A stretch of 64,000 nt of DNA from contig OZ374565.1 in NCBI GenBank assembly GCA_977862235.1, positions 620,001 to 684,000 on the forward strand. The letters are read 5' to 3'. Of the stretch, positions 1-61,955 are shown one piece after another (positions within the stretch are counted from its first letter, which is position 1; each line of letters begins with the position of its first letter). Position numbers and translations under genes: made by a program. Under the pieces are notes generated by a model. It did not search any database. It was not told the origin of the DNA and saw only the letters and a program-made list of their open reading frames with translations. The stretch comes from Dudresnaya verticillata (Eukaryota).

Positions 1-844
1 TCCCCGAGCTCCTCGACTTGACCAGGAATGAACGGGCGAGCAGGCAAGTTGCTCACGCCGAACTTGATCGCTCGGTAGATAAATTCCGAGCAACCGAGAT
101 CGCGCCATGCTTCAGCTCTCTTTTGAGTCTTTCTCCAAAGCGGGCGCGGATAACCAATGTCGACTACTGGTCCTTGGCGGCGCCACCCCTGCCTCCGGCA
201 CGCTTTTTTGCGTTGCTCGCGCTTAGGGTGGCTACCGCCTTCATCAATTGCGTAGCCATGTGAGATTCCAGTTTCTCCATTGGCTCTACAAGGTCATCCG
301 CAGCAGGCATGTCAGCTCTTGCTTCCAGGGTAGGCATGACCAGTTTGGCATATGTTGGGTCCTTGGACGCCAATTTGTAAAACTCGCACCGCAATCCGAC
401 AACTCTTAGAGAGTATCGGATGTACATGAGAGCCCACACGTGCAACTTGAGAGCCTCGTCGTCCTGCCTCTCTTGCAAAGCTTCCTGATGTAGCGCTGTT
501 GCAGCCTCGTGGAAGGACATCCAATAACCCTACGCGTTGATGTAGTTCGCTTCGTACTCGGCGACGGGGCGTAGACTATTATGCTTTTCCATATGCTTGC
601 GGATGGGCTACTCTCGGTGCTCGAAGAAGCCACCATTGAAGGCATTCACCGAGGGGCCTTGCTCATAAGGATACCGGCTCAGTCCGAAGTCCTTGTCGTC
701 ACGGCATCGGCGAGCAATCTTGGCATTGGCCGTCATCCATGTCGGGTCAATCTCGGCGTCTGCAAGGGTCATTCCAGCAGCAACCTTCTTGGCCTTCACG
801 ATCAACGCGCTGAGTGCCGCGAGACTGGTGTCAAAGATGCCCAT
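1..844 (-). pseudogene. Degenerate DIRS/Ngaro-like retrotransposon 5' part (gag-like ORF plus start of RT)
   Basis: ORFs 608-844 and 164-520 share one frame broken by stops. They are followed by FGERL/(frameshift)KRAEAWRDLGCSEFIYRAIKFGV, resembling the GxRL..W.......I...I..G start of DIRS-type RT ORFs. Runs off the window. Confidence 0.4.
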
Positions 845-1511: not shown

Positions 1512-1845
1512 ATAGGTTTTCATAGAACGGCCCGGCAGAAATGTAAAAACTAATATCAATATTGACGAATAGGTTTTCACGGCGCGCGAGATCGAATATC
1601 TGTTTAATAGGTATTTCTACACTGAATCTGGAAATACATATATAGATATTTTCCAAATCACTCTCACAAAACCTATTCTAATAGGTTTTGCTGTCGGCGC
1701 GTCAGAAATAACTTTATAGGTATTTGTCAGCACACAATCAGAATACCTATTAGAAAGGTATTTGCGTCGCCGGGTCGAGAAAACGTAAAAACCAATATCG
1801 ATATTGCCGGATAGCTGCTGGCGGCTCGCATTCGCAGAAACCTAT
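1512..1845. repeat. Interspaced inverted-repeat array A: eight ~35-bp units ATAGGTWTT-N17-AAWACCTAT
   Basis: Left arms start at 1512, 1569, 1607, 1642, 1681, 1716, 1754, 1811 (spacing 57-38-35-39-35-38-57). Cores are unique. AATATC.ATATT palindromes lie in the two long gaps. Confidence 0.85.
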
Positions 1846-3000: not shown

Positions 3001-4403
3001 GCAAGCGGCCAAGCAGCGCAGCGATTCCTGAAGCGAGACGAGAGTGGACAATGAGTAAATAAGTCTTGAAACCGGGATCAGAACGGTACGGTTTTGCTCG
3101 AGGAGACTCTGTACATGCGCTTCCTTCGGTTGCTTGGGTCGTGATATTCCTGTCATTATTTGGTACACAGCATCTATCCAGCGGAAGGTACTGCAGTAGA
3201 AGAGCGAGTTGGCACATGTACTCCTTCTCTGAAGATTTTCAAGGCGCAGCTGTACAAGTGAAGAGATTGGGTGCGCCTTACAACCTTGGGGTTTTGGAAT
3301 AGGCGCCCAGACAGGAGGGTGTTGTGAGCATTGGTGTCCACATGGTTCGATCTGTACTGGACTGGCGGTATGTCTCGTGGCAATAACGTCACGCTGTCGT
3401 TTGCGCGGTTGTCGCCGATGGAGAGTTGCACCGAAGGGCTGTAACGACACGTGTCTTTCGCGCCGGTCAACGCATGGGCTCGGAAGACGCGGTCATGTGC
3501 AGCCGTGCTACGGCGCGGGGGCGTGCTCGAAACAGCAAGCCGAAACGCACAACTGCATCACTGAGTAGCTTTCACTGTTCCCCACTTCCGCTGATTGGGA
3601 CGTGTTTCTGGGGTGAACGTGCCTGCTATACCTAGTGTCATGCTTCTCGTCTCAAGATGGGCTCCTGTCGATCACGGATATATACGGCTGGCTGAAGACG
3701 AAATTGGTTGGCCGGCAACCGCACTTCACCGAATTCAACACAGGGATCGAGGGGCATTTCATAATTAGTCTCTACATGCTGCGGTTCAACCGCATCAACT
3801 TGATTACTTTTGTAACTGCGAATTGAACGGGTTCCCAGTCTGAAACCGGATGCCCAAAACTTCTATCTCGAAGGAATCGGGGCAGCTGCGAGTACTGCAA
3901 CTAAAAGGCGAGGGCACGAAGGCAGTGTGATAACATGGGAATATTGAAGGAGGAAGCTATAAACAACGGTAACGGTTTACTGGACCCCGCAGCGTTTGTC
4001 ATGACTCAAGCGTATATTACATGAATAGCTATCGCGTTCTCCAGAAAATATGAAAGCGTCCTTGAAGAATTCAGCATAAAGGTCAAGGGCCATTTCATAG
4101 TTGGACAGCGAGGCAGAATGCATACATTACGCAAGGGAGTGAGAAAAACTGGAGGCTGTCTACTTCACTCCGCTGCGTCATGCATAACTTGAGCGGATAT
4201 GCAGGGCATCCAAATCGAAAGTAGTCGTGGCAGTGTGGTAAGGTATGACAAATCAAGGACAATCAGCGTTACTTTATGGCAGCGTTAAGTTATGCCGCAT
4301 CAAGGGAATTCAGTGTAGGTATTGTGTGATTAGCATTCCGAGGTTCACAACAATTCCCTTCTCCTTAAATCCAGGGGCGTTAAGGCTTTGATGGACTATC
4401 GTG

Positions 4404-7400
4404 TTACGACTTCTGGAGGGCGTCTCGTATTTTCTTCTTAACTGCTTGGGGCAGGCATTTATTAGACAGCTTCTCAAACTCAACGAGGACAGACGCGGCA
4501 TCCACATCGTCCGTCCATGCCTTCTTGGTTCTGGCGTAGACGGAAGGGCGATATTTACCGTCCCACGTGTCCTGCCCTGAACGAACCTCATACCACCTGA
4601 TTGACAGGGTCCAGACGACACCCGCGCTATCCTTCTTCCAGCCCTGTACCTGCGCGATCCAGAAAGGCACATTATTGTCCCTAATGTTCAGTACCACGAA
4701 ACGGTTGACACCATACGTCAAGTCAGCACGCTGAGTCTCATGCTCACCGTCATCCTGCTCGTCGGCGTCTCTATCTGCATCCTCCCACAGTTCACCATCG
4801 CTTTCCACAACTTGCACCGACTTTCTATATACACCCTTCTTCTCGAATACCTTTGTCAGGTCCCAATGCAGAGGCTCCTCGCGATCCGAGAAGACCTCAT
4901 CGCGAAAATTTTGTAACTCCTTTAGCTTCGCGGAGTCATTAATTCGTAGCTCCTCTGAGCGTAAGCGCTTGCTTACTTCGTCTTTGTCTGGAGGGGAGAT
5001 TATCGCAGTGGCAGGTGTCCCTTCCAGCCCGGGTGGGAATAGCAAGAAACGATGCTGAGGTTCTTTTGCTGTCAACGCCTTCCACGAATCCTTGCAACCC
5101 ACTCGTACCTCACACTTCCTCTTATAATAAGCTGCAGTACAGCTGGAGTCCCGTTCCGATCTGGAGAATTTGAAGTAGCGAGAGTGAGAGAAAGGCTGAA
5201 CACCACCAATGCATTGTTCCTGTTTGCATAGTCCTGACCAGTTTACGATGTGCCGCATGCGCGTTACTATCGGCTCGGGTGTGTATGACTGACGCAGCTA
5301 TTCCATCAAGTCCTGCATGGTTACAACGTCGTGAACCGAAGCCTCATGCAGGTGCAACTAAATGTTTGATCGATGTCGGCATGTGTGTGCCCGATTGGCA
5401 AGAAGGACATATGCACTTCAGTGAAAACCCCCCACGATACAAGCGACTCCACGTATGCGAGTAGGAAACTGTTTTTGTTCTCCCGTGTGCAGTTGTCTCC
5501 TTGCAGAAAGAGAGTGCCCGGCACCTCCCCTCTATCCAATTTGGTTGCTAACACGCGGTGCAACGCCTCAAGGATATGGTTTACACCGGAGTCGAACTCG
5601 GCAGTCATTGTTAGTAGCGACAATAGGTCTGCAGCAGCGCCGTGGTCCAGTACTCCTATTAACTTCGCTGCCAGCTCTTGACCAGTTGTGGTTTCGACCT
5701 GACATGGAAGTGTGGCAGACCATACACCGATTGATCTGCACCATCAATAATCATTGAGCACTATCGTGTCGGCGAGCGTTTCGCCATGTCGCATTTCTTC
5801 CGGTACCGATTCTTTCCTGCCTTAACATTTCTATATGCCGCTTGCGGCACTCTATCAATCCCTCTGCTGCCGTCTGGTCCGCACCCCCCGATGTCACGCG
5901 GGCAAGTTGGTCCCTCACAGTCTCGCACTCGGCACACTTCGCGAATCGGTGAGTTTTGCGCACATTCATTCTTGCGCAATGTGCAGTCCAAACAGTGTAA
6001 AATTAGCTCTGAGAGGGCGGTGTCTTTCCTCGGTACAATTTGGAAAGCTCACGCACAAAGACCTCGTACACGGCCTGCTTTTGAAAGAAGGGGAGATGGC
6101 GCTCGTTTCTGTCCGGCATTGCGTCAGATGTAGCTTCCGCTAACCTCTCTAAGAAACGCACAGTGAGTTCAAGAGAGTCTGTGGATGCATCTCGCGAGCT
6201 CTTTCCCGGGCCAGCCCGCCATCGGGCCTGTCTTGTACTTTTCGTTGACGACTGCAAGTCTCTCGAAAATCCAAATGCCCGTTCCAGAAACATGTAACAC
6301 ACTGGCCTGGAGTTGGAGAAGTACATATTAGAGTTGGGTTCCAACAGGCTTCGTAGATATGCCCGCCGCGCTGTTCCGTTCATTCCAATCGTACGCCTTA
6401 CGCCTCGCTTCCTCCTGAACATATGTGCTTTCAATTGTCGCAGAACATTGTTATGACTGACAACATAACCACGACGAGATGTTTGTGTTCTCAAGGTCCT
6501 CGAGCAGTTTCCGGTGCTTGTGGGCCATCAAAGGTGCAGTATGGTTGCCTCTCGGCCTGTTGTGATAGACGTAGTGTCGCTTCTGCCGAGTGTTCTGTTC
6601 TCCCATGTGGACGTCCTCCTCTTCCGGTCCTGGGCTAACAGCAGCATCTGGCTCCCCAGGAGGGCTGGGCACCGCGTTTTCCGCAACTGTTCGTTCTATT
6701 TCGGCACCCTCCGGTAAGTATGCTTCGTCCCCAAATGTTTCTGATTCCGAAGAATCCTTCGTACTCCTGTGCAATGCTGTACTGTCTTGCGGCTGACCTG
6801 GCCTGAGTCTACCGGCTATATTTGAAACCTCTGGTCGAGGTCGCCATGCCGGTCTGGTTCGAGGTGTGTATTGCAGAGGTGATGCGGTTAATACTGGCGA
6901 AGGAGCTGCTTGCGGGGAATCGACAGTCAGCCTCTTTCCTCTTCGGCGGCCCTTAAGCGGTGTTTTCACATGATATTCCTACCCGGGGAGACGGGTTGCG
7001 GGGAGAGGTGTGTCTGCTGCAGTACTGGAGCGGGCGGCAGTACGTTTGTTGCGCATCTGCGCCACATCCCAAACATGCATTCCTACCTCAAGACCGCGAC
7101 GAGTAGCAGGTAGATCTTCGACGACCTTGTAGGTGTAACGGTGCGGCTTAGAAGCAAACTCTTCTTTTATCTTCACCTTGTAAATGACCACCAATGTTTG
7201 CCCTTCCTCCTCGATCTCGTGCAGATAATGCCCATGTAGTCTAGTGCAATAGCACCATATGCTGTCCGCTGCACTAGGCTCTGGCGGGGCGAGCGGCTCA
7301 GCGGTTCCGACTATCAGCCCTTTGTCGAGCAACTGGACACGCCGTCGAGTAGGGGGAGTAACAATTTCCTTCCCATCATTACATTCACGCACTGTAGCTG

Positions 7401-7413
7401 AAGATGTCGACAT
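4404..7413 (-). pseudogene. DDD transposase (DUF7869/Sola-like), copy 1, multiply frameshifted
   Basis: ORF pieces 6979-7413, 6451-6969, 6003-6494, 5751-5969, 5321-5623 and 4404-5258 are colinear with the 911-aa ORF at 19196-21931. Motifs LQGDNCTRENKN, FLPIGHTHADIDQTFS, FAKCAECE. Confidence 0.85.
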
Positions 7414-7943
7414 TTTTGGTCCAGCTTGCCTTCCGTTGTCGTCTCCGCGTCGCGGAGATCTCCTCCCAGCTAATAAAACCGCCGGCAGTTATTGTTGACG
7501 AGACGAAGACAGGTTCCGGCGATGGTGGTACGTCTGGGAGATATCGCAAGGTGGCATGGAACCACCTGATTTGCCAGTCTGATTCTAAGGGGTTCTGATA
7601 TTTTCAGAACGAGATCACGAAAATGTACATGACCAGGCGCATACGACCCGATCGGAGCAAAGATGCTTGGAGCACGTCTCCTACACCACTCAGTGACAGT
7701 CAACATATGTCTACAAACTGGGCAGGAACAGAGAATATTGTAGTCACGGGTGGGGTGAAGTGGGAGTTTGCTCACTCGTGCCTGTGATGTGTAACGAAGC
7801 CATCTTTGCAGATTCCGTTGATATTTCATGCATGAAAACTAAACCAACGGTGCGCATGCTTCCTAGTGCCAGATGGTAGTTGCTAAACACGCTATTACCC
7901 GATGCCTTTCAGTTTCAACAGAGCATGTTATGAGGCAAACCGG

Positions 7944-8919: not shown

Positions 8920-9149
8920 CTCAAAATCCGAATTGAAAAAGCTCAGAAATTACAGCAAAATTAATTATTTCAGACCGGCTGCCGGGTTAGCACGCAAACG
9001 GACATAACTCGCGAACTACTGCTTAGTTTTCTATTCCGTTTGCACCAGCGTGCTCAGGCGACTCTGCCGTTTTCAACGCACGTACGTTCCAAGCGTTTCT
9101 ATTTCAGTCTATTTCGGAAGTACATTCTGTAACGCAGTAAACCAGTGTT
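8920..9149. repeat. Diverged right TIR of transposon copy 1
   Basis: Shares ordered motifs with 27840-27986: cataact..gaac, ttgcacca, gcg.ctct, aagta.attctg and terminal cagtgtt. Confidence 0.7.
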
Positions 9150-9333: not shown

Positions 9334-10101
9334 AAAGAATAGCTGTTAGAATAGCTGCGCCACGTGTGCCACGCTGTGCGCATGCTGTCGGTCACTGGCG
9401 TCGAAGCCCCGATGGAGCTGTACGCAAGTGCCCTGTGGCGCCTACAAGTACGCGAGTGACACTAACACTCTTGTGAATTTTCTACGTTTACTTTCTCCGT
9501 GTACATTATAGTTTAATTTAAGCGTTGTTCGAACGTCTTACTGTCCCGCTTGCAGTTCCGCACACGCCTCGCGGACCAGCGCACTCCGACGTCGAGCCGC
9601 TGAGAGCGCGGCGGACCATTACGAAAGTGCGTGCCCCGGGTAGCCGTTACCGTACATGTCGACACGTGTCGGTGCGCGCCGGTGCAATGCCCGGGTTGGC
9701 GCCGCCGCGGACGCGTAGTTTTCTATGTATGAATAGTCTCTACTCATGGCACAGTAAAGAACAACAAGTACCGGCCTACCCTGGATCTTGCCCCTTTCTT
9801 CTTCGGGTTCGATGCCTAGTGCTTCGTCCACGGCTTACCCCTTCTCCACATCAATCTAGGCTTTCTATTTTCATTTCCCACTGTCTGCTTCGTGCTGCCC
9901 CAAGACGGGAACGCTCGGGTCTGGCCCCTACCGCCCGCGTACGGTACGCCCTGTGCGTGCTGAGGCTTCGATGCCGTCAGGTCCGGTACCGTCGACGACG
10001 CGGGCAGCCGATAACCCGCTCTACACCTAGCTTCATACCACCCATCGACTAGTTTAGAACCGGTACAGCTAGATGTCAGTTAGACCTGACTTCTATGCCA
10101 A
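9334..10101. mobile_element. LTR-family copy (inverted relative to the other four), eroded ends
   Basis: Reverse complement matches 34424-35228 and 39418-40246 (e.g. tttctacgttt...ttaagcg...tgtcccgc; terminal ctatgcca). Confidence 0.75.
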
Positions 10102-11850: not shown

Positions 11851-12759
11851 GCCACAATGGGATGGGGTTACGGACAGCCCACGGCCGTGCCACTCAGACT
11901 CGGGCATCGTGCCCCACAGTTCTTCATCTTTGGTCATGCTCCTATTCGGCGAAGCGATCTCTAGAGACCACCTTAGAAGGTAGTTGGTCTTGTTCTTTCT
12001 TTCGAGTCCAGTACTCCTCTTCTGGATGACGGTGCCGAGGTCTTCCCCTTGATCATGAGCCCGTTGCATCGCCTTCCACGCTTGTGGCGGATGGGACAGG
12101 GTGTCCCTTTCACTTTTCAGCGCTGAGCAACGGCTTAAAGTACTCGTCCGCACTGTTGACGAGGAGATGAGGTGGTAGCCGTCACAGTGCCCCACGGACC
12201 ACATTGCGACGAGGGGTGTGGTTTGGTTAAGGAAATGCCCGGCTCTGAATCGAATTGTCTCCAAGCTTGATGGAGAGTGTTTTGACCACTATGCAGCAGA
12301 CGATCAACAAATTATGCGAACGATGCTTCGCCTTTATGAAACGCACAGACCGATGCGCTGAGAAAACGTTTCCTAGTCAATGCCACCGTTTTCATGTCGC
12401 CATTACCGCTTGAAGCGCTTCATATAACTCCTCTTGAGCCCCATTCATACTAGCATCAATCCATTCCCCTCATTATGGAATTATCGGCGTAGAAATGCGA
12501 CGGATCTCTCACTGCACGCATTATTCGAACTCGAAGATATCAAATCTCGTTTTCCTCGCGTACTTTCCTCTTTCTTGTCAGCATAGTAGTCCTGGGTCCT
12601 TCCATTCTAAATATGAAAGACACTCGACCATGCCCACAGCCGCGTATACATAGTATACTAATATACCATTCATGGCGATTTCAAAGCTGCAAACGAGAGC
12701 GAGAAGATAGGAAGCGTCTGTAGCCCACCGCCCCATTATATGTCGCGCAGGCCATATGC

Positions 12760-13030
12760 AACACTGATTTTGGCCGCTTCAGAATCTACTTTTTCAAACA
12801 GAATGGAAAACGTACCCACTTTCTTACTTATATTCCCCAGGGGAGAGCGAGCTAAGAACAGTGGTGCAATCCGTTTGCTCTCAAGTCAAGCTGTGCCAAA
12901 GTTATGGCCATCCGACACCGATTATATGACCCTTGAAAAGTTTCGAATTACCCCCAAAACTTTCCGAAAATATTTTCCCATAAATTGCCGCACGCCCCAC
13001 GCACCCCGCGGGGCCGGGAAGACTTGCCCA
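12760..13030 (+). repeat. Left TIR
   Basis: aacactgattttggccgcttcagaatctactttttcaaacagaatggaaaacgtacccac...; high identity by eye to the reverse complement of 27715-27986, with patchy similarity continuing inward. Confidence 0.92.
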
Positions 13031-13669
13031 GAAATGGCATCGGCGCCCCACCAGGCCGCCGCGCAAGTGCCCCATGGCAAGCCCCATTCCATGCCCCATG
13101 TCGGCGTTTGCGCCGCGCGCGCCCAGTTTGTGATCGCAGCACTGTACCCCCTCATCACCGCCCCACTGGCACATACGTCTGTGCCGTTCCCCGTGACACC
13201 TTTACCCTCCCTTGGGCGTTGGGCCACCGCGTCATCGTGCGCGCCATCCACCCCACCATGCACCGAGCACCGAAGACCTCCGCCGCCGCGGCGCGCCTCG
13301 CACCCTCTCCACCTTGGGCCGTCTCCATATCGTTCCCTCGGCGCGTCGTTCTCGCGTCTCGTCGTGTTCGCGCCCCTCCGCACCATCACCATCTCGTATC
13401 TGCGTCGCCTCTCTCCCTCATCTCCTCGTTCTTCTCCGCATTGCGCCCTCGTGCACAGCAGGCAGCCACCTTCTTCTCTCCGTGCCACATCCCCCGATAG
13501 CCGTGTCGTTCCCCCTTCAGCGCTGCGCGCGCGTCATCGTTCCCCTACTACCGCCTCACTCCTGTGCTCCTTCTTTCCTGTAGCGCCCTACAAGTGCCGC
13601 AAAGCTCCCCCCGCAGCCCTCCCAGTCCCGCTGTCAGCCCCGCGCCATCCGGTGGGCCACCCTCCTCAA

Positions 13670-14095
13670 GACCTTGCCCCTACAGAACCTTTACCTCTCA
13701 AGCTTCCCTGAGTGTTTCTTCCTCTCACGGCGCGCCGCACGTCGCTGTTGGTTCACGCATATCGCGCATCGCCGTAACAGAATGCCGAACTCAACCATTG
13801 CAGTATCAAGACGTCATCCCTACAGAGCCTTCACCTCCCATACTTCCACGAGTGTTCCGTCCTCTTACGGCGCGCCGCGCCTCTCCCTCAGGACACACAC
13901 ATCGCCGGAACAGAATCCTCAACTCAACCAATGCAATAGCAAGACGTCACCCCTACAGAACATTTACCTCCCATAGTTACCTGAGTGTTTCATGCCCGTC
14001 GGCGTGCCGCGCGTCCCCGTCATTTAGTTCACGCATGTCGCGCATCGCCATAACAGAATCCCGACCTCAACCATGGCCATAGATTTACAGACATG
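13670..14095. repeat. Subterminal imperfect tandem repeat, ~135-140-bp unit, ~3 copies
   Basis: ccctacaga..c.tt.acctc...cggcg.gccgc...catcgcc..aacagaat...ctcaacca recurs at ~13678, 13818 and 13951. Confidence 0.8.
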
Positions 14096-14470
14096 TCTCA
14101 TGGCGCCCTGCGCATCTTTCGATACAGACCATCGCTATGGACAGGACGCGACGTTGACAGGGTGCCCAAGACTGGTTGGTAGTTCAAAAGCAAATTTATC
14201 GCCACGCTGTGGAGAGCGCTGCTTCTCCGGTTGCAACAAGTACTATCTCTCTTCCTGTGAAAGTGTGAATTATCGCCCCTCTAGGTAACACTGCATGTAC
14301 CTATTTCATCTTCTACGTCGCGAGCAGTTCCCTTCCGGAATCCTGTTAAAGACGGCTACAGACGTAGCGATTGTTTGGATGCACCTGCCATGATACGGTA
14401 TTGGCATCTATCATGCAATGTCCCCCAAAGTTCTATCCGTTCAACAAGCATCTAACAGATACCGTTTTAG

Positions 14471-17407
14471 TCATTTTTCACCTTCGGCCGGATCCGCGCT
14501 GACTTCGCGGCGTTCAGTCGATCTATCGGACGTCACGAGGGAGTTCTGGAACTTCCCATCCAAATTTCCAGTCGGGGCCCCATCTGGAAGTGGCAGCGCA
14601 GCTGCGGCTCCGCAAAGTGCACTGCCGCCCTCTTCGTCAACCCTGGTTCTTTTCTGTCTTGGCTCTTCTTCAAGAGCTGCTGCTTCACGCAGCACACGCC
14701 TTGCCTTCTCCAGTCGTTCGTTGACGACTTCATCTACACTGCTTTCCTTTTCCGTCGTCCTGCGACCCTCCGCAGCTACACTCACACCGTCGCCTCCTCC
14801 CCCGTCCTTTTCTTTCTCGTCTGCAACAGTTGCCGCTTCTGTAGTCTGCAGTTGTGTGTTGTCAGCAGAAGCTACCAGAGCACGCTTGGCTTCACTGAAT
14901 GTTTGCGAGGATCTTGTGTGCAAGAAATCGTTCTTGGCGAGACGCAGGAGCCGTTCATGTGCAAGTCGGAATATATCGGGATTCTGTTCGATGCAGGTAC
15001 ATAAACGACCAGTCCACAATGCTGTAATGGCTGTTGTCATCGTTCCACCGTACGTGTCGAGAACTGAACCTCCCTCAAGGAAAAAGGTCTGCGACAACTC
15101 CCCAATGAGAGCCGGGTTCCTCTCTTCGACGAGTACAGGCGATCTCGTGTTTGGTCTTTTCAATTTATCTCTTGGTACTCGTACGCGTGACACAGCAGCG
15201 AATCGCCGCTTCTCCGGTGCTTGCAGATCATTGTAGTTGCTTGCTAGGTCTGGTTGAAATCCTTTCGGGTGGACGCCTGGAGCTCCCGCGAAGACTGTAA
15301 TCTCCGCGGCATTCTGGGGTACGGTTTGGCCACGGTGTGCCTGCATTGTCGAAGTGTCCTTCATAATCACGTGGGGTAAGCGGGACATTTGAACTGGTAC
15401 TTCACAAATGCCTCGCGGAATTCCGGGAACAAAAGGAATGACGTAATGACAACTACCCATCCAACCGGGGATAACAACTCTTCTTGCGAAATCCACTAGG
15501 GACCTAATCTCCTCCCCATTCATGAAGTTGTCGTAACTTTCACCTGCCCCAGCGTGAGACTTCTTTGTGCCGTACGGTGGGTCCGTCAGCAGAATGTCAA
15601 ACAGTTTGCTCCCTTCCTTGCGCACGGTAGTATCGAACTTCTGCCAACGCATCTGGAAGCACTCCAGTTTCATTTCTTTCATATAGTCTATGTGATGCGT
15701 CGCATCGTTGTTATCAGATTGCAAACCTTTGGCAGTTTTTAGCCGTTCCGATTGCACTGTGGATTCGGACATGGCTGCAATGGCACTACCAGGATTCTGG
15801 GCGTCTTCATCCCCTCTTGCACCTGTCCCGGCTGCTTCTGGATCTTCTCCATGACCCGCTTCCTGCGTCATATTTTTCTCTTGTGCATCCGATATTAACC
15901 CGCCTGATACAGGCCGTCCCACTTTTCCAGAATTCCCATTCACTGGTAACGTCGCTGCTTCGGGTTCCTTTGGGGAACCCGCGGCGGCCTCGACATTGCA
16001 TTCACCTGGAACAAAATCTTGTTCCATATCACCGGAAGTAGTACCCTGTGCTGTGGGTACTGTCTGGCCTTCATTAGGCTTCCTTTTGTATTGAGCTTCT
16101 CGGGCAGTGAGAATGACGTGCTCGCGAAACGTTTTTAGTTTGAAAGGGGCTTCTTGAGGGCATGAATCCTTGTACAGCGACAGGATCGACTTCAGCAGGT
16201 CATGGTCGTTGCCCCTGTTCATGGTTATCTCCAAATCCAGCTTCGTACTTGACAACAGGTTCTCGCGTAATGTAATCATAGCTTGCGGCCATTCCTTCCG
16301 TTCCCCGACGAGTTCGAATTTATGGACCTCTCTCATCGCGGCTTTTGCCTTTTCGAATTGTTCTGTTGTGAATCGATGTGGCATCGGCTTGAATTTATGA
16401 TTCCGTGACAACTCCCGAAGCCTGTAGAGTGTTGCTACCTCCGTCTCCACGGCGTTATACGAAAACCCGGCATTCATAAAAGCCCTTGATGATCGTAATG
16501 TAGATATGTGAGCAAACTTCCGATACACACGAAAGTCCATTGCCTGCATCGCGGTTGGCCTATCCATCGCTCTTCCTGACGTTTTGAAGGCCTGATAGGA
16601 GGCTAACTCTGGGAATTCCTCATTCATGATGACACCGACCGCTTGAATCTTCTCCCTGGGTAATCGAAGAACGATTCCTCCGGTCTGTTTTATGGTGTTA
16701 TCCGTCAGGTGTCTGCAGCCGTCGTATGCTCGCGCAACAGCAACAGCAGTTGGTGTCTTCCCATTGTTTTCAGCAGTAAATCGGTCAGCTTCAGCTCTTA
16801 GTCCACTGAGCACATCGTAGAATGTATTTTCTATGTAGAACGAAGAATCGTGCTTGCTGTTTTGGTGCCTTGCCAGTTTCCGGAGTACTTGAACATCGTG
16901 ACCGCCCTTCAATACTGTCACAGGGAGGCCAAAAGCCTTCCACCTGTCGTAGTCCTTCTGATTTAGTTCTAATATGGCAGCAACCCTGTGTTGCCCATCC
17001 ACAACTCCATACCAGTCCGAACGTGACTCATGCAGTTTCTTTATATGCTCCTCACAAAAGGGAGATCCGTCAGGATTCCGTTTGGATGTAAGGTACTTGG
17101 TCACGTATCGACGCAAAGTGCCGGTCAGCTTCACCACTATTGGGGCATCGGACCGTGCCACGAATCCGGAGTTGGAGTGGCCGGAGTTAGGATTCGGAGC
17201 ACCGCGGAAGATCAGCTTTCACCTCTCCACGCCAGACCGCACAATGGGCCGAATTTCAGACAACGGTACGCATGCCTTCGGATCAATCCGGCAATTCACG
17301 GACCCTTCCATTACCTCCGCAAATAACGCTGTTGCAGCATCTGAAGCGTTCCTGGAGGCAGCAGCATCTTGAGGTACTCCTTTGCTCCTTCTCCTGCTGC
17401 CACCCAT
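14471..17407 (-). pseudogene. ParB/Srx-like (DGQHR) domain fused to a beta-class N6/N4 DNA methyltransferase (DPPY), lightly disrupted
   Basis: ATG at 17407 is in frame with the 896-aa ORF via one TGA at 17219-17221. ParB-like motifs IRPIVRSGVER and WYGVVDGQHRVAAILEL. MTase motif IV FDILLTDPPY precedes motif I GGSVLDTYGGTMTT...GRLCTCIEQNP...AHERL. Confidence 0.85.
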
Positions 17408-18171
17408 TTTGGCAGGTTGAGATAGAAGATGTGACTTTCTTGGATTACAAAGCCTTTCCTTGGGTTTAGAACTGGAAACGTTTCCAGGGTATACACGGTG
17501 AACAAGACTTTAAAAATAGGCGGGAAACTTGCTGAGGTCTGTTTGAACGTACCGCATCCACCGGCGGTGTTGGGATCTGAAAGCAGATCCGAAACCCTAA
17601 GTTCGTTCTGAAGTCAGGATTCTGATCTGATTCCGTTCATAAATTGCGGTCACGGTATCGAAACATGCCGTACAGGCAGTTTCTACTCTGCAGTTCTCGG
17701 TGAACAGAATATCGCTCGTGACCGCATAAGGCCAGGCCATGCGAAATGCCTGCCCTTCGCGTCGGGAGGCAAGCTGTGCAGTCTCTTCGGTGCGCGCGGT
17801 GCACGCGGGTCGCACGGTTCTCCACAGGGGACGGCGGCGCGCGGGTGGGGTCGTGTGGGGGGTACCTGAACTTAACGGCATAGTGAAACCATACAGTAAT
17901 ACCAAGCGTCGCAAAGTCTCACGGACTTCAATGCACGGAATACAGTAAGCTCCGCGGAGCGGGAGGCTGAGCAGCAGGACGTTCAAGTCCCGTTAATCGG
18001 TCCTGCAGCGGCATATTTCGTATTGTACAGTCGGTTCCCACGGACCGTTACGGTGGACCGTGGATCCATGGTAGGAAAACGTTTGTACAGTCGGTACGAT
18101 ACCACCTTCCAATAATGTGCTGGTATCACGCCCCACACGCGCGTGTGGCTTGTACCGAAACGTGTTATCGG

Positions 18172-18501
18172 ATAGGTTTTGAGATTGGTGGCGGTTAATA
18201 ACTATTGGAGCAATACCAGTATTGCATGAAAGCTTTTCATCTAATCACCAAATCAATATCTGTTTAATTGCAAATGAGATTGCGTCAGCCGAAAAGCTTG
18301 ATAGATATTATCCAACGGCAATTACACGAGCTTTCAAATAGCTATCAATTCGGGCCACACACCAAAAGCTAAATAGCTTTTTGCCACCCGCATTTCTCAT
18401 TGCTTCCAGATAGCTTTCTGTCCGGTGCCGCGGCCGAGAACCATTTGAACAATACTAGTATTACTCAATAGATTTTCAGATCGCGTACGCTCAATACCTA
18501 T
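18172..18501. repeat. Interspaced inverted-repeat array B: eight 34-35-bp units ATAGNTWTT-N16/17-AAWANCTAT
   Basis: Left arms at 18172, 18229, 18267, 18301, 18338, 18373, 18410, 18468 (57-38-34-37-35-37-58). CAATAC.AGTATT palindromes lie in the long gaps. Colinear with array A; some arms are degenerate. Confidence 0.8.
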
Positions 18502-18947
18502 ATCTTGCCCGGGCTCATGCGCCCCCTCTCAGACGCATTGTAGTACACGCCTCGCCCCCAATTGCACGCCACCCGTCCCTCACCCTCTCCGCATCGACAC
18601 CCCCTCGTTCTCGCGTCTCAGAGATGCCAACAGTACTGTGTTACGCGGCAGCACGTCCTCCCGCAGCGGCATCAGTAGCAGCAGCAGTCAGCAGATGCGT
18701 CAGGAAGCGGCGCCATGGCGGGTGCACCTGCTCAAGTGCGCCGCGCACCGTTCCCTCATCAGCACCAAGCACGTACTACTCTCTCGCGTCGGTCTTTCAA
18801 GGAAGACCCAGCGCCCGCGTGCCTATACTGGTACACCAGACGATGTCTATACTCTGAAGTGTTCCACAACAGGATTCTGTTTACTAAGTTCGTACACCGC
18901 ACAAGCTGTAAAAGATGGTATGTCCCGGCTACGCCGTGAGCAGCTCG

Positions 18948-21900
18948 TCACGACATCTGCAGTGATTCCCTTATCTTCTTCCTAGCCGCGACAGATATAG
19001 TAGCCTTGCTGAGGGCCGGGAACTCCACCAGCACTGTGTCGACGGAGATTGCTTCTTTGCACGGTCTGCTGACCAGAAAGCAGGGTTTGTATCTTCCCGT
19101 CCATGCCCCGTCGTTCGGACGAACCTCGTACCAGTGAACACGCAGCCTCGACAAGACATTAGTATCGAAGGTTCCGAGAAGGTCCGTGACCTGCGCTATC
19201 CAAACGGGGTGTTTGGCGTGTCTGTCAAGTCCCGGGGATCAGGGCTCAGTGCTACGAAACTGTTCTTCGTGTAGGTAGGGTCTGCAGTAGGCTCGGCGGC
19301 AGGCATTTCGATACCTTCCCCGTCGACCACCTCCTCTTCTACAACCCCATCTGCAGCCTTATAGGTCCCGTTAAGCTCGAAAGCTTCATCCAGATTCCAA
19401 TGAAATGACTCCTCCCTGTCCCTGTACACATGATCTCGAAGCTCGTGTAGCGACCTCATCTTCGCAGTGCTATTGATGCGCGGCTCTTCTGTCCTCAAGC
19501 GGTCGCTGAACTCTTTAACATCCGGGGGAGTACGAGCAGGAGTGTCGGGGGTTCTCTTCAAATCCAGCGCGAACAGAATGAATCCGGCTTGATTGCTGTT
19601 CGTCTTCAGCGGGACGAACTCATCACTGCAACCAATCTTGACCTGGCAGCCTGTCTTGAATGTCGTATTTGCGATGGGCACTCCGACCACTCGGTGGAAC
19701 TTGAAGAATCGGTAATGCGTGAAAGACTCGATCTTGCCAATGCACTTCTCAGCCTTGCAAAGTCCAGAGAAGTTTTCTATGTGCAATAGTCGGTTTGTAA
19801 TGGGCTGGGGGGTGTAGGATTTCGTCAACTCCTGCAACAAATCATCCATAGTGACTGCATCGTTGGCATTCAGTCTTCTAGATGTGCAGCTGAATGCCTG
19901 GTCAATGTCTGCGTGCGTGTGACCGACGGGCAGGAACGACACATGGACCTCCTTAAAGACTCCCCAGGCAACCAAACATTCACAGTACGACATCAGGAAT
20001 GTATTCTTGTTTTCCCGTGAGCAATTGTCGACCTGCAAGTAGAGTGTCCCCCTAAGTTCCACCCTGTCCTTCTTGATCATGAACACTCTGTGGAGAGCTT
20101 CTATTACATTGTTGGCCCCGGTTTCGAGCTCTGCAGTCATTGTGTATAGATAGAGCTGCTTGGTCGCTCCATGCTCCAAAAGCCCCACTAGTTTGGCCTT
20201 AATTGCATGACCAGTCGTGCTCTTCACATTAACAGGGAACTGTGGAAGCCCAAAGGCGGACTGGTCCGCTCCATCAATTATAAGAGAACAGAATTCTGTC
20301 GGATAAAGTGCATCCATCTCCGTCTCCTTCCTGTACTCGCGCCCCTCCTTCCATACAATAGCAATATGCTTGCTGCGGCGTGCACGAAGTTCCTCTGTGG
20401 CACTCAAATTGGTCCTTGCTTTCGCTAACAAGTCCCCGACTTGCTCACATTCTGTGCACTTTGTGAACCTGTGCACTTTCCGCGCTTTGATATGACTGCA
20501 GTGCTTTTGCCAAACGTCATAGAAGTAGCTTATCACTGCAGGGCTACGATCCGTGTAGAGTTTGCGATGCTCTGCGACATAAATGTCGTAGACAGCTTTC
20601 TTTTTGAAGAAAGTAAGGTGTACCTCCTCACTGTCTGGCATGCAGTCCGCCAATGCCTCTGCAAGTCGCTCCAGAAAAGTAACAACGATATCACGTTGGT
20701 CGGCAGCAACATCCGGTGATCCTCCCTGCACGCAGTCCAGCCTACGGCTTTGCGGTGTTTCCTTCACGGACGCCTGCAAGTCTCGTGAGAATGCAAATAC
20801 CTCGTGGAGGAAGGCATAGCACACGGAAACGCCGGAGAAGGAAAACTTGTTCGTGTTTCCTTGCAGTAATGTCTGCAAGTAAGAACGTCGATCCTCTGCA
20901 CCCATGAGCAGGACGCGTCTCGCCTCCGCCCTAACAAATACCGGCTCCATACTAGAGAAGCATTTGCGGGTACAGCACTTCATCCGCTTCACATCTCCGT
21001 TCTCCAACTTACGCAAACGTTTCTTCCTCCGGGTCAGCAGCAAGCCTTTAACCTTCGCCTTTTCCGTCCTACTGCGGTAGGTGTACTTGCGCTTCCCACG
21101 GGTATTTGTAGCGGAGTGACCTCCGGAAGGTCTTCCAGGATTCCGTTCGACGTTGTCCACATTGTCATCGGCATCCTGTGCACCTCGAGACAAGCTACGA
21201 TCGCCCTGTTCACCACCTGCATCCGACGGCGGGCCATCCTTCCCATTCCCCTTCCTTCTCCTGCGCAAGGAACCCCTTTCAACTTCTTCGCCCGAGTCCT
21301 CGCTCTCCGATGTAGCATGGGAGGGCGTTTCATATTCTGATGCCGACTCCGAGTGCGAATGTGACTCGGAGCCGTCTGCAGACACCCTCCGGCTGACCGT
21401 GGGATGCTTTCTCTTCGACCCCGACGGCGCCCTTGGCGACAGGGAACGTTTATTCCCTGGCCCAGACTGGCCGCTCCTGCTTCGGAAGCGGAATCCGCTA
21501 GCATCAATTGTCGCGGCCGTGGGCAACACCGGGCGCGAAGCTGGCTTTTTGGGGCGGGGCCGCATCTTGGGTCGCTGCTCCGGGGTGTGGACTAGAAGCT
21601 CACTGGATCCAATTCCGTCCTCCTCGACATCACCATCTGCCGACACGGCCTTTCTGGACGCCGAATACGCTCGCGGCGTTGGACGACTTGGAACGGCGCG
21701 CTCAGAACTAGCCTCCGCCCCACGCGGGGTACGCCGCTCTCCCATACTGTGCAAATACCAGGCGTGGAAACCACCGGCAAACTCGTTAAGTCTGTCTGGA
21801 ACGGTATCCAGGCTTTTGTAGGTGTATGGATACTTGCGGGCGGCGTATTCCTTCTCGATTTCAACGTTACGAACAACAACCAGGAACTGCCCCTTCTTCT

Positions 21901-22063
21901 GCTGTTTGCAGAGTTCGTGGTTGTGCAGCACAACACAGTACTTCCCACTCTTGTCCGCCCTTCAGGGTATCATCGGCTTGATAATTCTTGCACTCGCACA
22001 CCCCACCTTCGTGCCTTTCAAGAAAAGAGTTACCTTCCCATCCCCATCCTCACCGATCACCAT
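18948..22063 (-). pseudogene. DDD transposase (DUF7869/Sola-like), copy 2, near-intact (~1030 codons)
   Basis: Candidate triad LIIDGADQ / LQVDNCSRENKN / GHTHADIDQAFS; Cys motifs CCTRKC and KCTECE. ATG 22063, one in-frame TGA at 21962-21964, and a 1-nt frameshift near 19200 (PFG* should read PFWIAQV as in copy 1) continuing to 18948. Confidence 0.88.
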
Positions 22064-22571
22064 GATGTGCGCGTGAGCACCACCACTAGACGGGCGCAAC
22101 GAAAGCGCGTATCGGCACGTTCAGAGGAATGCAGATAAACGGAAAGGGAGTACTCCCTTTCCGAAAGATAACGTTATCTGCAAAGATTAGGTGCGGTGTG
22201 CGACAATGGCGCTGGGACAGCTGCACAGGATGGTGGTTACCCAAATGCAATGGCACACGGCTCGGAGTCGCACAACACCATGTGGTGGCGGTTTATACCG
22301 TTTGTGGTTGAGGTGAACCAGGGTTTGGCGAGGGAGTTACTGGTAATGGGCTTTCCACCACACATTCGCGATACAATCACACCAGCGGGCGGTTTGATTG
22401 GCCGCATAATTCTGTTTGGCGCAACCAGGATTCTGAACTGTGCCGTCGTTTTCCGATAAGACAGCTCAGAAGATCACTTGCAAACAACCCGACTACCATC
22501 GCTCTCAAAGCGTTTGACCACGTCCTCGCTCCACAAACTCAGCAAAAAATCACGCGAGTTTGCTGGAGAAA

Positions 22572-22997
22572 ATGACTTCTCGCGAAGCTGCTGAAAGGCC
22601 TGAAGGAGTTCAAACTGCTCCTGAACCGCGGTCATCCGCGGATGTGAATGGTAACGAGAAGAAGGCGTTGCGCGTGTCATTTCCTCGCCAGGTGGTAACG
22701 GGAAAGCAAGATTCTGCATATGACAAAGATTTCATAAGCAGTCTTTTCACTGATCAAGACATTCTTGGGTCTAAGAATACGGAACAGAAAGCAGCGTTAC
22801 AGGAGCGAAGCCAACTACTCTCTAGAGGGGCAGTTTTTGCGTTGCTTTCTGTGCTCAGAAGCGAAGTGTCGTGCAGGAAGAGCAAGATTGAAGGGACCCA
22901 GTCGATGTTCCCGACCGTTCCGTACACACGATCCATAATGAACCAAATAGCTAGAATGTTGGAAAGCGAGCAACAGCCGACCATGGATGAGGAATGA
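22572..22997 (+). CDS. Hypothetical protein divergent from the transposase
   Basis: ~141-aa ORF with protein-like composition inside the TIR element; no recognised motif. Confidence 0.35.
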   Translation: MTSREAAERPEGVQTAPEPRSSADVNGNEKKALRVSFPRQVVTGKQDSAYDKDFISSLFTDQDILGSKNTEQKAALQERSQLLSRGAVFALLSVLRSEVSCRKSKIEGTQSMFPTVPYTRSIMNQIARMLESEQQPTMDEE

Positions 22998-25900
22998 GAG
23001 ATGAACAAACAAGCACAATGTTTTGATTCTGGCAGAGTTGTCGTTACCATGCTATGTTAACAGAGATCTGGAACGAGATGACCAATATTCTCATGAAACG
23101 TTGCTGATACTGTGCCTGCACGTCCTTGGGCACTCACGCGGCTGCTTCCTTTAACAACAGAGCAAGTCCGTGCCGCGCTCTGTCATGGTCGCCCTCATCA
23201 ATCGCTCGCTCGTGCAAGGCGACGGCTTGCAAAGGTAGAACATGCCCTCCATCTCACGCGTCCCAGTATACTGTGTATACAGAGTATACACAAAACAAAG
23301 TGCAACCATGTCATGGACGTCGGCATTGTCGACGATAGATTTGCAAAGGGTGCGGCGTTGCGGTATGGCATTCATGTCAACAGGAGCGGGTGTTCAAGCG
23401 GCTGGAGACGGTTGCAGATGGGATGATTGGGGTGTGTGTCGGGAGCGAGTGCGCCAAGTGCAGCGCGGCTCGGTGAAAAGTTGCAAGTGGGGCGGCGGGA
23501 GGTGTTGCAGCGTATACGGTGGACCCGGAGAGTCCAGAAGGCGACTTGCTGGCGGGTTTAGAGGACGAGACGCATTGTGGCGTTAAAGACAATTGTCGCG
23601 GGGTGCAGCGTGTGCGGCTGTGCAACTAGGCCCTTGGTCGACTTCGATAATGTTTTGGAAGTAGTGGTGCTCTTCAATGGATGGTTGTAGCATGTGTTGG
23701 CGGTGGTATGTGGTCGGCAGCAACGACCGGGGAGAACGTTTCTGGCTTGGCGATCGACATTGTTGGTCAGCGAGGAAAGATACCCACGCAACACAATTGT
23801 ATTGCTGTTAACAGGAGAACACACTATGCGACGTCATCGCTACAGCCGTTACAATTGCAACTCTGATAATAGAGTCGCGAGCCATCCTTCAGCGTAGCGC
23901 GGTGCACGAGTATTAGGAGCCTTGGTGGATTGGCGCTCCGCGAGATCTTTGGACCACACGCAAACATCGTCATCGTACCGTTGCAGTCTCGTGGTCCGCT
24001 CCTCCACACAGCTGTGGAATCCCATCTATCATCCACCGCCAGCATTTTTGCCCACAAAATCACCTCTTGTTGCGGTCAACTCTGGACGGCTTGCGCAGTC
24101 TCGCCGTCACACCCGCAGCGCGCTGCTGCGACAGACATCCCGACCACTCCTACCACCGCTCCACTTGATGCAACCCCCCGGCGAACGGCCCCGCTCGCTC
24201 CCATTGTGCGCTCATCTGCCCTGTTGTCTGTTTTCCTTGGCATCTTTTATACTTGGCAACTTGTGCACTACGCTAGAGATCTGCAGTGCGTTGGGAATGT
24301 CCTCGCACAATCGCGGGATGGGCCAGAAGAGCTTTGCGTCGGCCTTCTGGGCAAGCCAGCTGGCTAGACCTGAAGTGCAAAATAGAACAGAATTCTTTTC
24401 TGAGCAAATTCGACTTGGCTTAAGCCAAGTCGACAAGGGCCCACAGTCGCCAGTTGCAACTGGATTCAATTCGGTCTCTACAGAAGACCATCGTTGCAAG
24501 ATCTCGTGTCATGTGTTTGACTCGCACATATTCGCAGGCACGCGTGCCAGGACAAAAGGCCAGACGAAGCGACCTCTTCAGAACAGGTCGCTGAATTCTA
24601 CATGCGACAGTCATCCGTGTCGAACACTTCCTAGAAGGTCCTCCGGGCAATGCTTTGTACCAACGGCAACACGTCTGCTCACGACATCCGTAACCGCCGC
24701 AACGTTGTCGGAGTCAAATCCTTCTCATGAATCCCTGTTTGGACCGATACGCCCTTACTCAGACCCGTCAGGCTTCAAGCCTTCCTCCCGCGACACGTGG
24801 GAATATATTTCCATGTCTTGTCAAAGACTAAGCGTGATATGGCAGATCTGAAGACTAACGGCACTACTGGAGTTGAAAAGGGGCGTGCATATGCACTCGA
24901 CAATTTGGAGTTTGAAGCGCATCGACAGTCGTTGCTTCCGCATGTCAACCTGTTCAATCTTACGGGGGTAGGAGATACAGATGGGTTAGTCATGTGCAAG
25001 CTGTGGGCAAGTGTTGTACGATTACAGAATTCTGTATGCGCTCCTTAAGGAGAGCATACATGCGAGCCCCGTGCTTGGTCAGAATGCCATTCGGCTCTGC
25101 GTAACTGCAGCCGTCGGCTGCATGAAGATTGCCCTTTCCCATAGAACCTACCATTGCAACCCGAGCTGTCCTTACAACTGAAATGAGGGAGACCGGGCAG
25201 ACATTTGGAATACAGACAGGACGTGGGCGTTGCATCATGACCGGTTCACTGGCGGTACTGGGCTCGCGCTTTCACGGATGATATTTTCGACGACAATCAT
25301 CAGTCATGTCACCAAAAGGTCTCCAGTATTTTTCTAGTAATGCATCACCTTGCATCACCTCTGAAGAGGATCAGCGTGCGTTGCCAACTCGTCGGCTACA
25401 AGGTACGAAAAAAACGCTGCGTTGCGGGGTGACGGCACCGCTACCAAAGACGCGGCATACAATGTACAGAACTCTGGCAGTCATACTCTGGCAGCCATGC
25501 AGGGTTTTGTAGACTAAGCGCACAAACTCAGTTGCTCCTATTATTTGACGCGTTCAAAGTGAGCGGTTTACAGGACTACGAAACTTCAGCGCTTCGAGAA
25601 GTTGCAAGGACATTGCTTGAAGTGACCCATATTGTAATCTACGACAACTTATCAGAACGACAATCCAAGTTGGAACCGTTGCCAAGATCTCCGGTCTTCA
25701 CATCTTGTTCATCCTCTCGATTTTCGAGTATGGGCGGCATTATGGCATTAAGATCCTCCTTTGAGTTCTCATTTTCTTGCAGTCATACGAATCATTAGCC
25801 ACGTCGTCGAAAAGATGGTGATGATCAGCGCAGGATACTTCGTTCAGCGATTGCTCTGTCGTGCGCGCTCGCCACGTCTGGCGTGCGAACGACGTCTCAG

Positions 25901-27404
25901 GCACCAACTCTCTGAATATCTTTGATTACGCACAAAGAGCCTTTTCAGAATCCGTCTGCAGATGAGCAAGCGAAGCATTTCATTGTGCCGGTAAAGGTAC
26001 CATCTAATTCTGTTCCCACAACCGCAAATGGTGGGCCTCCACACCAGGCCACCGAGCAAGGAAAATCGAGAAGCTCTGGCGGCAGCACATTGATTTGGAA
26101 ATTCCCCAGCATTCAATGCTATCTGCAGTTTGGACATATTGAAGATTTGCCCGCGGGCTGTGGTCGCTCTCGTTTGTAGCCATCGGGTGGCTATGGATAC
26201 GGGGGCGTTGCGCTTTTCGGCAACTTTTCAGCTCGGTATCCCTGGTGTCAGTCGAGAAGGTCTTCCCAGGATCGCTTCATTGCGGCCTCGTAAAAGCGCG
26301 TTGCATATGCCGGAGCTATTGTAACAGGGGCAGTGGACACTTTCGATATAGCTGTCACTAGTGATATATGTAGGAGTCCAAGATGCGATCATTTCGAAGT
26401 ACAACGTGTTTCACAGAAGGGTGTCGCGAAGTTCTTGTCTCATTGTATCCATAATTCTGGCATAGATGCTCCGCATCGAGCGATTGATCCTTTGATAGAA
26501 GAAGGCAGGTTGTGCGGTACAAGGGCTTTCTAAGCAACAGGAATTCGCAAGCATGCCACTTACATACAGAAGAACCTAACCGCAAGCAAAGTCTTAAATC
26601 TTAATGAAGGGAACGGAATTCCGTTCCTTCCTCACTACTCGTGGTAGATACTAACGTGAACGACGCAAACCTGCAAGCGCTTTCTTGTTGACTCCTATGC
26701 TTACATTACACACTACCGCGCTACCCCAGCTTCCAGTTGCGATAGTACCCCAGCTTCCAGTTGCGATAGTTGTTCATGACGAGCAGGAGCTCGTGTGTCC
26801 CATTAAGTTACCCTGCCTTTGCGCGCCCACGGAACCAATCCAGCATTTCCTTTGACGTGCGCAATCTGAGTTCATATAAGGTTCGTGACGTAGCAGTTGC
26901 TTACTTCAATGTTGCAAAACGGTGATCCTCTTTCCTTCTTACGGCTTACTCTGATACACAAGTAGCCCTCAATTCCTCTCATCGTAGCACTGTTATCGTT
27001 AGTGAGCTTAAAAGGATGAGACACAGCCATCGAAAGGGTGTGGTGAGTGCGAGTGCTGTTGCAGGGTCGCTCGGCGGTTCTACTCAGATCTGAAAGTGGC
27101 AAACCGGGGACCCAGTGCGCGACGTTTTTGTCGGGCACAGTAGCTTGCTGCTGCGCGCGAGCATGACGAGGTTAAGAAGTGTGGGGGCGAGGGCGAGACG
27201 AGGCTAGAGCACGACATGGAGCGACCAGGACGCTGTACGTGAGCGACGTGGCGATGGAGCGACACGGGGCGGGAGCGAGATGGACAGGCTTCACTGGACG
27301 CGGTACGGGAGTAAGGTGCGCCTCGCAATGGCGAGGGCGCTATGTGGCACAGTATGAAAGCGAGGTGGTGGACCATGAGGTCATCTCATGAGGTGCACCC
27401 TCAT

Positions 27405-27590
27405 GAGGGCGCGATACAACGCGGGAACGAGACGGCGAGGGCGCTAGGTGCTGCAGTATGGAAGCGAGTTGGTGAGGGCGTGACACAACACGGGAGCGAG
27501 ATGGAGAGGGCGCTAGGTGCTGCAGTATGGAAGCGAGTTGGTGATGGCGCGACACAACACGGGAGCGAGATTGCGAGGGCGCTAGGTGGC
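27405..27590. repeat. 69-bp subterminal tandem repeat (~2.7 copies)
   Basis: gagggcgctaggtgctgcagtatggaagcgagttggtga...cacaacacgggagcgagat repeated; gives 23-aa repeats in the overlapping ORFs. Confidence 0.85.
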
Positions 27591-27714
27591 GCGAGCGCGA
27601 CACGGGTCGAGCAAGACGCGGTACCGGAACGAGGTGGCGGAGGTGGTCGGGGCTCGGTGGGGGTGGGGCCCCATACAATATGCGCATGCGCCGGTGGGGT
27701 GAGGGGGTACAGCG

Positions 27715-27986
27715 CTGCGCAAGTCTTTCCGGCCCCGCGGGGCGCGCGGGCGTGGGGCAATTTCTGGGAAAATATTTTCGGAAAGTTTCGGGGGTAATTC
27801 GAACCTTTTCAAGGGTCATATAATGGGTGTGCGGATGGCCATAACTTTGGAACGGCTTGACTTTAGGGCAAACGGATTGCACCAATGTTTTTAGCGCGCT
27901 CTCCCCTTGCGTATACAAATAGGAAAGTGGGTACGTTTTCCATTCTGTTTGAAAAAGTAGATTCTGAAGAGGCCGAAATCAGTGTT
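27715..27986 (-). repeat. Right TIR
   Basis: Ends ...aaaaagtagattctgaagaggccgaaatcagtgtt followed by atgc. Confidence 0.92.
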
Positions 27987-27990
27987 ATGC

Positions 27991-61827: not shown

Positions 61828-61955
61828 AGCAGCGTCACTAAGTCTGCGTAATCAAGTACTTTGAAACCGCTACAACTTGGTTTGAGCCGTCGTTGAAGCG
61901 CGCCGCCTCTAGGCGAGCGTTGCTGTGTCAACCAAGAAAACCAGGTCAGTTCAAC

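Follow-up and report, generated by a model that had tools for sequence, protein, structure and literature searches.

Mirror-symmetric inverted-repeat arrays inside DUF7869 transposons, candidate parS-like protein scaffolds

Transposons, cargo and arrays in the window

The stretch of DNA analysed here (64 kb, hereafter the window) carries two transposons whose transposases match DUF7869 as their only Pfam family (Table 1). Element 2 is flanked by the target duplication ATGC (12756-12759 and 27987-27990). The hallmarks of Sola1, TIRs and a 4-bp target duplication, are both present (273-bp TIR, 90% identity), and element 2 is likened to Sola1 through its termini, TIRs and duplication, its transposase being known only as DUF7869. 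An affiliation with Sola2 was rejected: where this group has a motif of the FFATSHGK-x-x-x-DG type before the third catalytic Asp, the window has FLPVGHTHADID, as a visual comparison with the first of the two parts of the alignment in the supplement of PMC3627910 shows. Array B is internal because it lies within the TIR- and duplication-bounded element 2, 37% along it and 5.6 and 9.6 kb from its ends. In the same way, array A is internal to element 1, since the right end of this element stops at 9149, 7.5 kb from the array, and its left end lies outside the window.

Table 1. Coordinates of the arrays, the genes and the transposon ends in the window
Feature	Positions	Strand	Description
ORF beyond array A	167..844	-	broken; not ParB-like; no Pfam family; 115 homologues
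Array A	1512..1845	.	16 half-sites ATAG-N-TWTT as eight 9-N17-9 units; internal to element 1
Linker palindrome 1 of array A	1552..1563	.	AATAYNNRTATT
Linker palindrome 2 of array A	1794..1805	.	242 bp (23.05 turns) from palindrome 1
Transposase 1	4407..7488	-	DUF7869; split into several frames
Right end of element 1	9040..9149	.	24/32 identical to element 2 TIR start
Element 2	12760..27986	.	complete Sola1-like transposon, 15,227 bp; termini AACAC...GTGTT
Left TIR of element 2	12760..13031	+	90% to right TIR over 273 nt
ParB-HTH-methyltransferase gene	14474..17407	-	ParB/Srx fold, HTH and beta-class amino-methyltransferase, folds predicted on homologues; DGQHR and DPPY motifs; in-frame stop
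Array B	18172..18501	.	1+6+1 layout as in A; gaps 23,3,0,3,0,3,22; cores 16-18 nt
Linker palindromes of array B	18212-18223 and 18451-18462	.	239 bp apart
Transposase 2	18951..21961	-	DUF7869; frameshift near 3' end
Right TIR of element 2	27715..27986	-	pairs with left TIR

Each array lies 3' of a broken minus-strand DUF7869 gene. In element 2, transposase 2, array B and the ParB-methylase gene follow one another in tandem. Relatives of this cargo protein number 144 among cluster representatives (E≤1e-30), and the N-terminus of the protein is predicted from the homologues P0147 and P0213 to adopt a ParB/Srx fold followed by an HTH. The fold matches, of moderate Z, are to PadC (Z 9.7, rmsd 2.6, 98 aligned), KorB (Z 8.0, rmsd 4.9, 133 aligned) and pNOB8 ParB (Z 7.9). 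The methylase fold, also predicted on a homologue, would be beta-class and closest to CcrM (Z 23.9, rmsd 2.9, 222 aligned). The canonical GxxR-type motif of ParB is partly conserved in the cargo family. No ParA family or partition ATPase was found among the ORFs scanned, and the element, integrated with a target duplication, is no segregating replicon. A small beta-rich domain belonging to no Pfam family is common to the transposase N-terminus (21827-22036, 7141-7431) and to the C-terminus of some ParB-methylase homologues (P0147 851-942).

The ORF beyond array A may be an accessory gene or a nested insertion. The one named sequence among its homologues comes from Chondrus crispus and is the only named pointer to a red-algal host of the transposon, which seems likely.

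Other repeats and gene remnants surround these features. Tandem repeats of 140 bp and 69 bp lie just inside the TIRs of element 2 (13666-14082 and 27404-27588), and two unrelated perfect 24-bp palindromes lie upstream of its transposase (22140-22163 and 24410-24433). The remnant of a third DUF7869 transposase (32974-33800, minus strand) has no array that could be found. A non-coding dispersed repeat of about 800 bp is present in five diverged copies at 67-78% (9341-10100, 29094-29730, 34418-35228, 39411-40246 and 40482-41229), the first of which is inverted and begins some 190 bp past the right end of element 1. The window further contains a Helitron-like PIF1 helicase fragment (60447-61628, minus strand) and a Copia-type gag-pol (61842-64000, plus strand).

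Geometry of the arrays and fate of arms and cores

Array A is a real, conserved feature. Its units start at 1512, 1569, 1607, 1642, 1681, 1716, 1754 and 1811 around a mirror centre at 1678.5, and gaps of 22-3-0-4-0-3-22 give a start spacing of 57-38-35-39-35-38-57. These coordinates bear out what the initial annotation had described, namely eight units in a 1+6+1 layout with 17-nt cores (found in 8/8 units), a spacing that is itself palindromic and a palindrome in each of the two 22-bp gaps. The cores, said there to be all different, indeed show no relation to each other, to their mirror partners or to the cores of array B, while the arms depart from ATAGGTWTT by 0-4 mismatches per unit. The ungapped self-mirror identity of the array is 0.56, against at most 0.40 in 300 shuffles. 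The linkers with their flanks match as direct repeats at 20/24 positions versus 12/24 as inverted repeats. Array A is also enclosed in an 11-bp inverted repeat, next to which CCC stands on either side, as would suit a MITE or a repeat in the subterminal part of the transposon. This reading is hardly credible: array B has neither that right end nor the duplication, and the mapped element ends lie 5.6-9.6 kb away from the arrays.

The reading of these units had been staked on the contrast between arms and cores recurring in further copies, and array B retains it, with the same layout around unrelated cores of 16-18 nt. Between A and B, arms and spacing are thus kept while the cores drift. The 32 halves of both arrays give the half-site consensus ATAG-N-T-W-TT and the cores show no conservation; position by position, the arms of A and B are no more identical than expected by chance (p 0.48). 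With a matrix derived from A only, B reaches 118.6 bits (next window site -24, best of 30 block-shuffled windows -1.9) and, with one derived from B only, A reaches 149.0 bits against a best of 10.4 in shuffled windows, the independence of these cross-tests being incomplete since the gap template was drawn from both arrays. Exact matches to ATAGNTWTT number 21 in the window versus 2.3 expected (8 in A, 7 in B, 6 elsewhere) and the four occurrences of the linker pattern AATAYNNRTATT all lie within A and B, counts that express confinement and are no independent test, both patterns having been taken from the arrays. None of the 21 matches falls in the TIRs. In gapped-motif scans of the kind that had been proposed, A and B each recover the other, and none of 92 transposase loci carries the 16-half-site chain, the best of them reaching 34.8 bits. 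A candidate third array at 36556-36872 was dropped at a score of -37 bits, and a de novo 8-mer scan was too insensitive, as it missed even array B.

Unique cores of constant length, together with tail-to-tail arms that can make short palindromes (the central one of the array being perfect), recall a guide array of the CRISPR or TIGR type, in which the palindromes would be the repeats and the 17-nt cores the spacers. TIGR and Tn3 res are the comparison systems for the guide-array and the res-like readings. However, the arms show no excess of tail-to-tail pairing (p=0.21 for A and 0.66 for B), and the gaps between repeats vary from 0 to 23 nt, so that there are neither near-identical repeats of constant length nor a covarying structure. 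The best matches of the 16 cores in the 64-kb window have 2-5 mismatches, similar to shuffled cores, and no core target beyond chance emerges from the window and 391 kb of loci (93 loci), where one core has a 1-mismatch match in the transposase region of L040. Rfam returned one weak match under the gathering score and no family reached it, and no RNA-guided effector was found among the nearby ORFs of the window. Within units, arm complementarity is below the permutation mean (51 vs 52.9 in A; 42 vs 45.5 in B). For the 10/16 units whose 17-nt cores are in register, 75.6% of cells are paired versus 77.7% when shuffled, 444 of 500 shuffles being as high, and none of the covariation measures exceeds its control. 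The processed small-RNA or guide array suggested initially thus finds no footing in unit pairing or covariation nor, within the 64 kb of host genome and the loci covered, in core targets, and is very improbable. The guide-RNA, MITE and subterminal readings all fail because there is no hairpin covariation, no core target in the searched sequence and no motif in the TIRs.

Array A is nevertheless predicted to fold as one single long hairpin (z -6.9 and -4.3; -2.5 and -4.9 for array B), and its arms pair with their mirror partners better than in permutations (p=0.008; three kinds of pairing were tested). Joined to the presence of all four gene orientations around the site, this could suggest an extruded hairpin or cruciform, or a recombination hinge inverting two gene modules. 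The strongly negative z-scores are due to the mirror layout itself. The mirror pairing of B falls short of significance (p=0.19), in neither array do cores pair with their mirror partners, and the whole-turn spacing described below is a property of duplex DNA. Furthermore, scans of 22 ORFs of the window and 43 ORFs of the loci, together with six-frame scans, found no serine or tyrosine recombinase gene, which also leaves the res-like site put forward at first without a recombinase. The hairpin or hinge is thus quite improbable. A conserved consensus with conserved spacing is what would be expected for protein sites on duplex DNA.

Paired palindromes at distant transposase loci

The 92 transposase loci comprise 80 of 529 confirmed metagenome stretches and 12/12 genome_contigs matches; the latter are mostly short MAG contigs and probably mis-binned eukaryotic DNA. 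Two similar palindromes lie 130-340 bp apart in non-coding DNA at 14 of these loci, against 0, 0 and 0 in three shuffled sets. Arrays A and B are so degenerate that they fall under the thresholds of this automatic scan, and the case for homology with the distant sites is made by their position, layout and spacing, and not by sequence. Four of the 14 picks are tandem-type repeats (L043, L085, L086 and L091) and the L050 pick is not the main pair of its locus, which spans 232 bp with its second copy cut by the contig end. The three assemblies whose transposases are closest contribute 19 loci, many of them short contigs, and one of these loci has an automatic pair; a different cluster of palindromes lies between the genes of L005.

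The transposases at paired-palindrome loci are 21-35% identical to transposase 2, and the palindrome sequence differs by lineage, each having its own. The asymmetric centres of the palindromes point in the same direction in L019, L023, L049, L054 and L086, and the first four of these loci combine direct centres with inverted flanks, the same mix as in array A. Taken over the whole site, mirror identity is higher than in any of 300 shuffles for A, B, L015, L019, L023, L027, L049, L054 and L065; L062 and L076 are borderline cases, and L016 and L034 show no such symmetry.

Several loci carry other repeats or genes. At L086:4504-4825, seven copies of a 25-bp palindrome with a period of about 50 bp, unique spacers and flipping centres lie upstream of the DUF7869 gene, and further copies are scattered up to 5300. 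Elsewhere the palindrome or repeat of the lineage comes back between consecutive genes, on both sides of the cargo, at L065:1060-1191 and 3040-3371, at L077:1270-1384 and 4805-4862, and in L043. A contig end at L019:10340-10358, CAGTGTT, is the terminal heptamer of the window elements, and a short ORF right after the transposase at L008:2975-3500 looks SET domain-like by eye. Viral contigs hold no relatives of the transposase or of the ParB-methylase. Their sole motif match, L081 (1567-1730), was set aside as an unrelated perfect 39-bp tandem repeat with identical cores; this repeat has a palindromic head and lies at a gene end, on a contig that looks like a giant virus.

The distances between paired palindromes (168, 180, 192, 199, 220.5, 229, 231, 232, 239 three times, 242, 273 and 335 bp) correspond to 16.0 to 31.9 turns and all lie within 0.3 of a whole turn. 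With the period preset to 10.5 bp, all 14 unfiltered picks, the L043, L085, L086, L091 and L050 picks included, give a mean cosine of 0.40 (p=0.016). Hand-curated sets of nine spacings give p 0.00009-0.012, sets that are post hoc, with close relatives collapsed, two by-eye sites added and those five picks dropped. Out of 36 periods from 9.0 to 12.5, the best one on 13 spacings is 10.5. A 10-11-bp periodicity of AA/TT between the palindromes reaches p≤0.05 in 4/13 sites and is absent from A and B (p 0.25 and 0.75), which is why no intrinsic bending is claimed.

The visible partner genes at paired-palindrome loci carry a ParB, methylase, SET or OTU domain, and where such a partner is visible the site lies between it and the transposase gene. 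The two genes are in tandem in element 2 and L027, divergent in L019 and L034/L036, and convergent in L023 and L054. The array could be only an operator or promoter region for the autoregulation of the adjoining genes, as the divergent loci and the position of array B, 765 bp upstream of the ParB-methylase start, would allow. However, the site lies between two 3' ends in L023 and L054 and 3' of the methylase gene in L027. The convergent loci argue against a plain operator, a reading that appears decidedly unlikely.

An inverted-repeat array adjoins a ParB-domain accessory gene in B, L019, L023, L027, L034/L036 and L077; array A does not, within the window. Across the 20 loci of 5 kb or more, six have both site and ParB, two ParB only, five the site only and seven neither; the association is weak and six seed sequences were drawn from these same loci.

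In phage Mu, the internal activating sequence or the central gyrase site helps to picture a transposase-bound enhancer. By analogy, the transposase would bind the array as a synapsis site or transpositional enhancer, which would organise the pairing of ends 15 kb apart. The site is indeed internal and near the middle third (37% along element 2; 44-63% along in L019, L023, L027 and L054), independent of gene orientation, helically phased and always adjoining the DUF7869 gene, and no ParB neighbour is seen in element 1. However, the TIRs lack the motif, the constant transposase neighbour is a product of fetching the loci by their transposase, and similar arrays accompany ParB cargo on a different transposase superfamily. 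Binding by the transposase is possible but unlikely. The ParB protein is favoured over it because the ends lack the motif and because of these arrays on another superfamily.

A candidate docking site for ParB cargo and its relation to known systems

With moderate confidence, the array can be read as a helically phased, parS-like scaffold of double-stranded DNA, likely for the ParB protein of the element. A phased multi-site protein scaffold, parS-like or res-like, had been among the first suggestions; the parS-like branch gains from the kept arms and spacing, the free cores, the ParB neighbour in element 2 and the whole-turn spacing, and the res-like branch lacks a recombinase. Array A would thus be an internal cis element of the DUF7869 (Sola1-like) transposon working as duplex DNA, a docking scaffold for the ParB-HTH-methyltransferase of the family. 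HTH dimers could sit on the two direct-repeat palindromes, about 23 helical turns apart and on one face of the helix, and the palindrome-bound dimers would then close a loop of about 240 bp. The 16 half-sites may seat further protomers or a second protein. From the array, the ParB protein could spread along the element or bridge it, and its methylase domain (in relatives a SET or OTU domain) would mark the element itself and not the host. Several observations count against this reading: the gene beyond array A is not ParB-like, which leaves A without a ParB neighbour in the window, the canonical GxxR-type motif is partly conserved, and L034 and L016 are not mirror-symmetric.

A broader proposal is more tentative. 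A widespread family of eukaryotic transposons might have kept a working bacterial-style ParB/parS module, in which a CTP-type clamp carrying DNA- and histone-modifying domains would load at a single helically phased, looped site midway along the element. Sliding outwards from there, it would mark 10-15 kb in cis or join the ends; the lineage-specific palindrome would then be a self-recognition code. The arrays provide exact candidate sites and about a dozen natural variants, several of them beside a ParB-type gene, as well as a rule for their geometry: within a mirror-symmetric frame, the two palindromes are directly repeated at a distance of whole helical turns. With these sites, self-binding and self-modification can be put to a direct test, in binding assays and by mapping methylation. 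Should the protein prove to be a sliding clamp, eukaryotes would have an epigenetic writer that is addressed by sequence and restricted to cis.

Bacterial ParB on parS and KorB are operator clamps acting on palindromic sites. They share with the present system the palindromic sites and the ParB/Srx fold with an HTH (predicted here). The present system differs from them in its chromosomal location, in the fusion of its protein to a methylase and in having no ParA among the ORFs scanned.

In Arabidopsis, the anti-silencing protein VANC of VANDAL transposons binds clustered short motifs in the non-coding DNA of its own element (PMC5735166). As described in the text available to us, these motifs form same-orientation tandem clusters of no fixed geometry, unlike arrays A and B. 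The VANC motif YAGTATTAY matches both linkers of array B, which is taken as chance.

Two papers of 2025 propose that ParB-domain cargo lets algal transposons bind and modify their own DNA, the parts available to us defining neither a site nor a geometry (bioRxiv 10.1101/2025.02.11.637652; PMC12477816). One of them describes Sola1-1_Ec32 from Ectocarpus, with AACCG-CGGTT termini, a 282-bp imperfect TIR, a 4-bp TSD and an accessory gene that is ParB-like with an N4/N6-methylase (PMC12477816). Compared by description, it resembles element 2 in its ParB-methylase gene, its termini starting with AAC, its TIR of about 280 bp and its 4-bp TSD, and differs in its length of 21.5 kb and in its accessory gene on the opposite strand; the text of that paper, as far as available, mentions no array or palindrome. 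No paper on DUF7869 was found in the accessible literature, nor any description of the mirror layout or the phasing (sources including PMC4738411, PMC8885841, PMC5751038, PMC3985635, PMC3627910 and bioRxiv 2021.09.26.461848, some available in part; most subscription journals and the Repbase reports are outside this scope, and the Bostrychia supplements may show geometry).

The closest relatives in the literature are the Plavaka elements of Bostrychia moritziana, where tandem inverted-repeat arrays lie beside PAG3, a ParB-2OG oxygenase gene (bioRxiv 10.1101/2025.02.11.637652). The initial statement that no described eukaryotic TE feature resembles array A was thus too strong. Both cases involve a red-algal giant DNA transposon, a ParB-domain accessory gene, adjacent inverted-repeat arrays and a proposal of self-binding and self-modification. 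The Bostrychia elements differ in their transposase superfamily (EnSpm/Plavaka) and in the protein fusion, and their arrays are tandem, the portion of the source at hand mentioning no mirror layout, direct-repeat palindromes or phasing. Arrays beside ParB cargo have therefore already been briefly reported; within the literature accessible to us, the mirror layout and the helical phasing are new.
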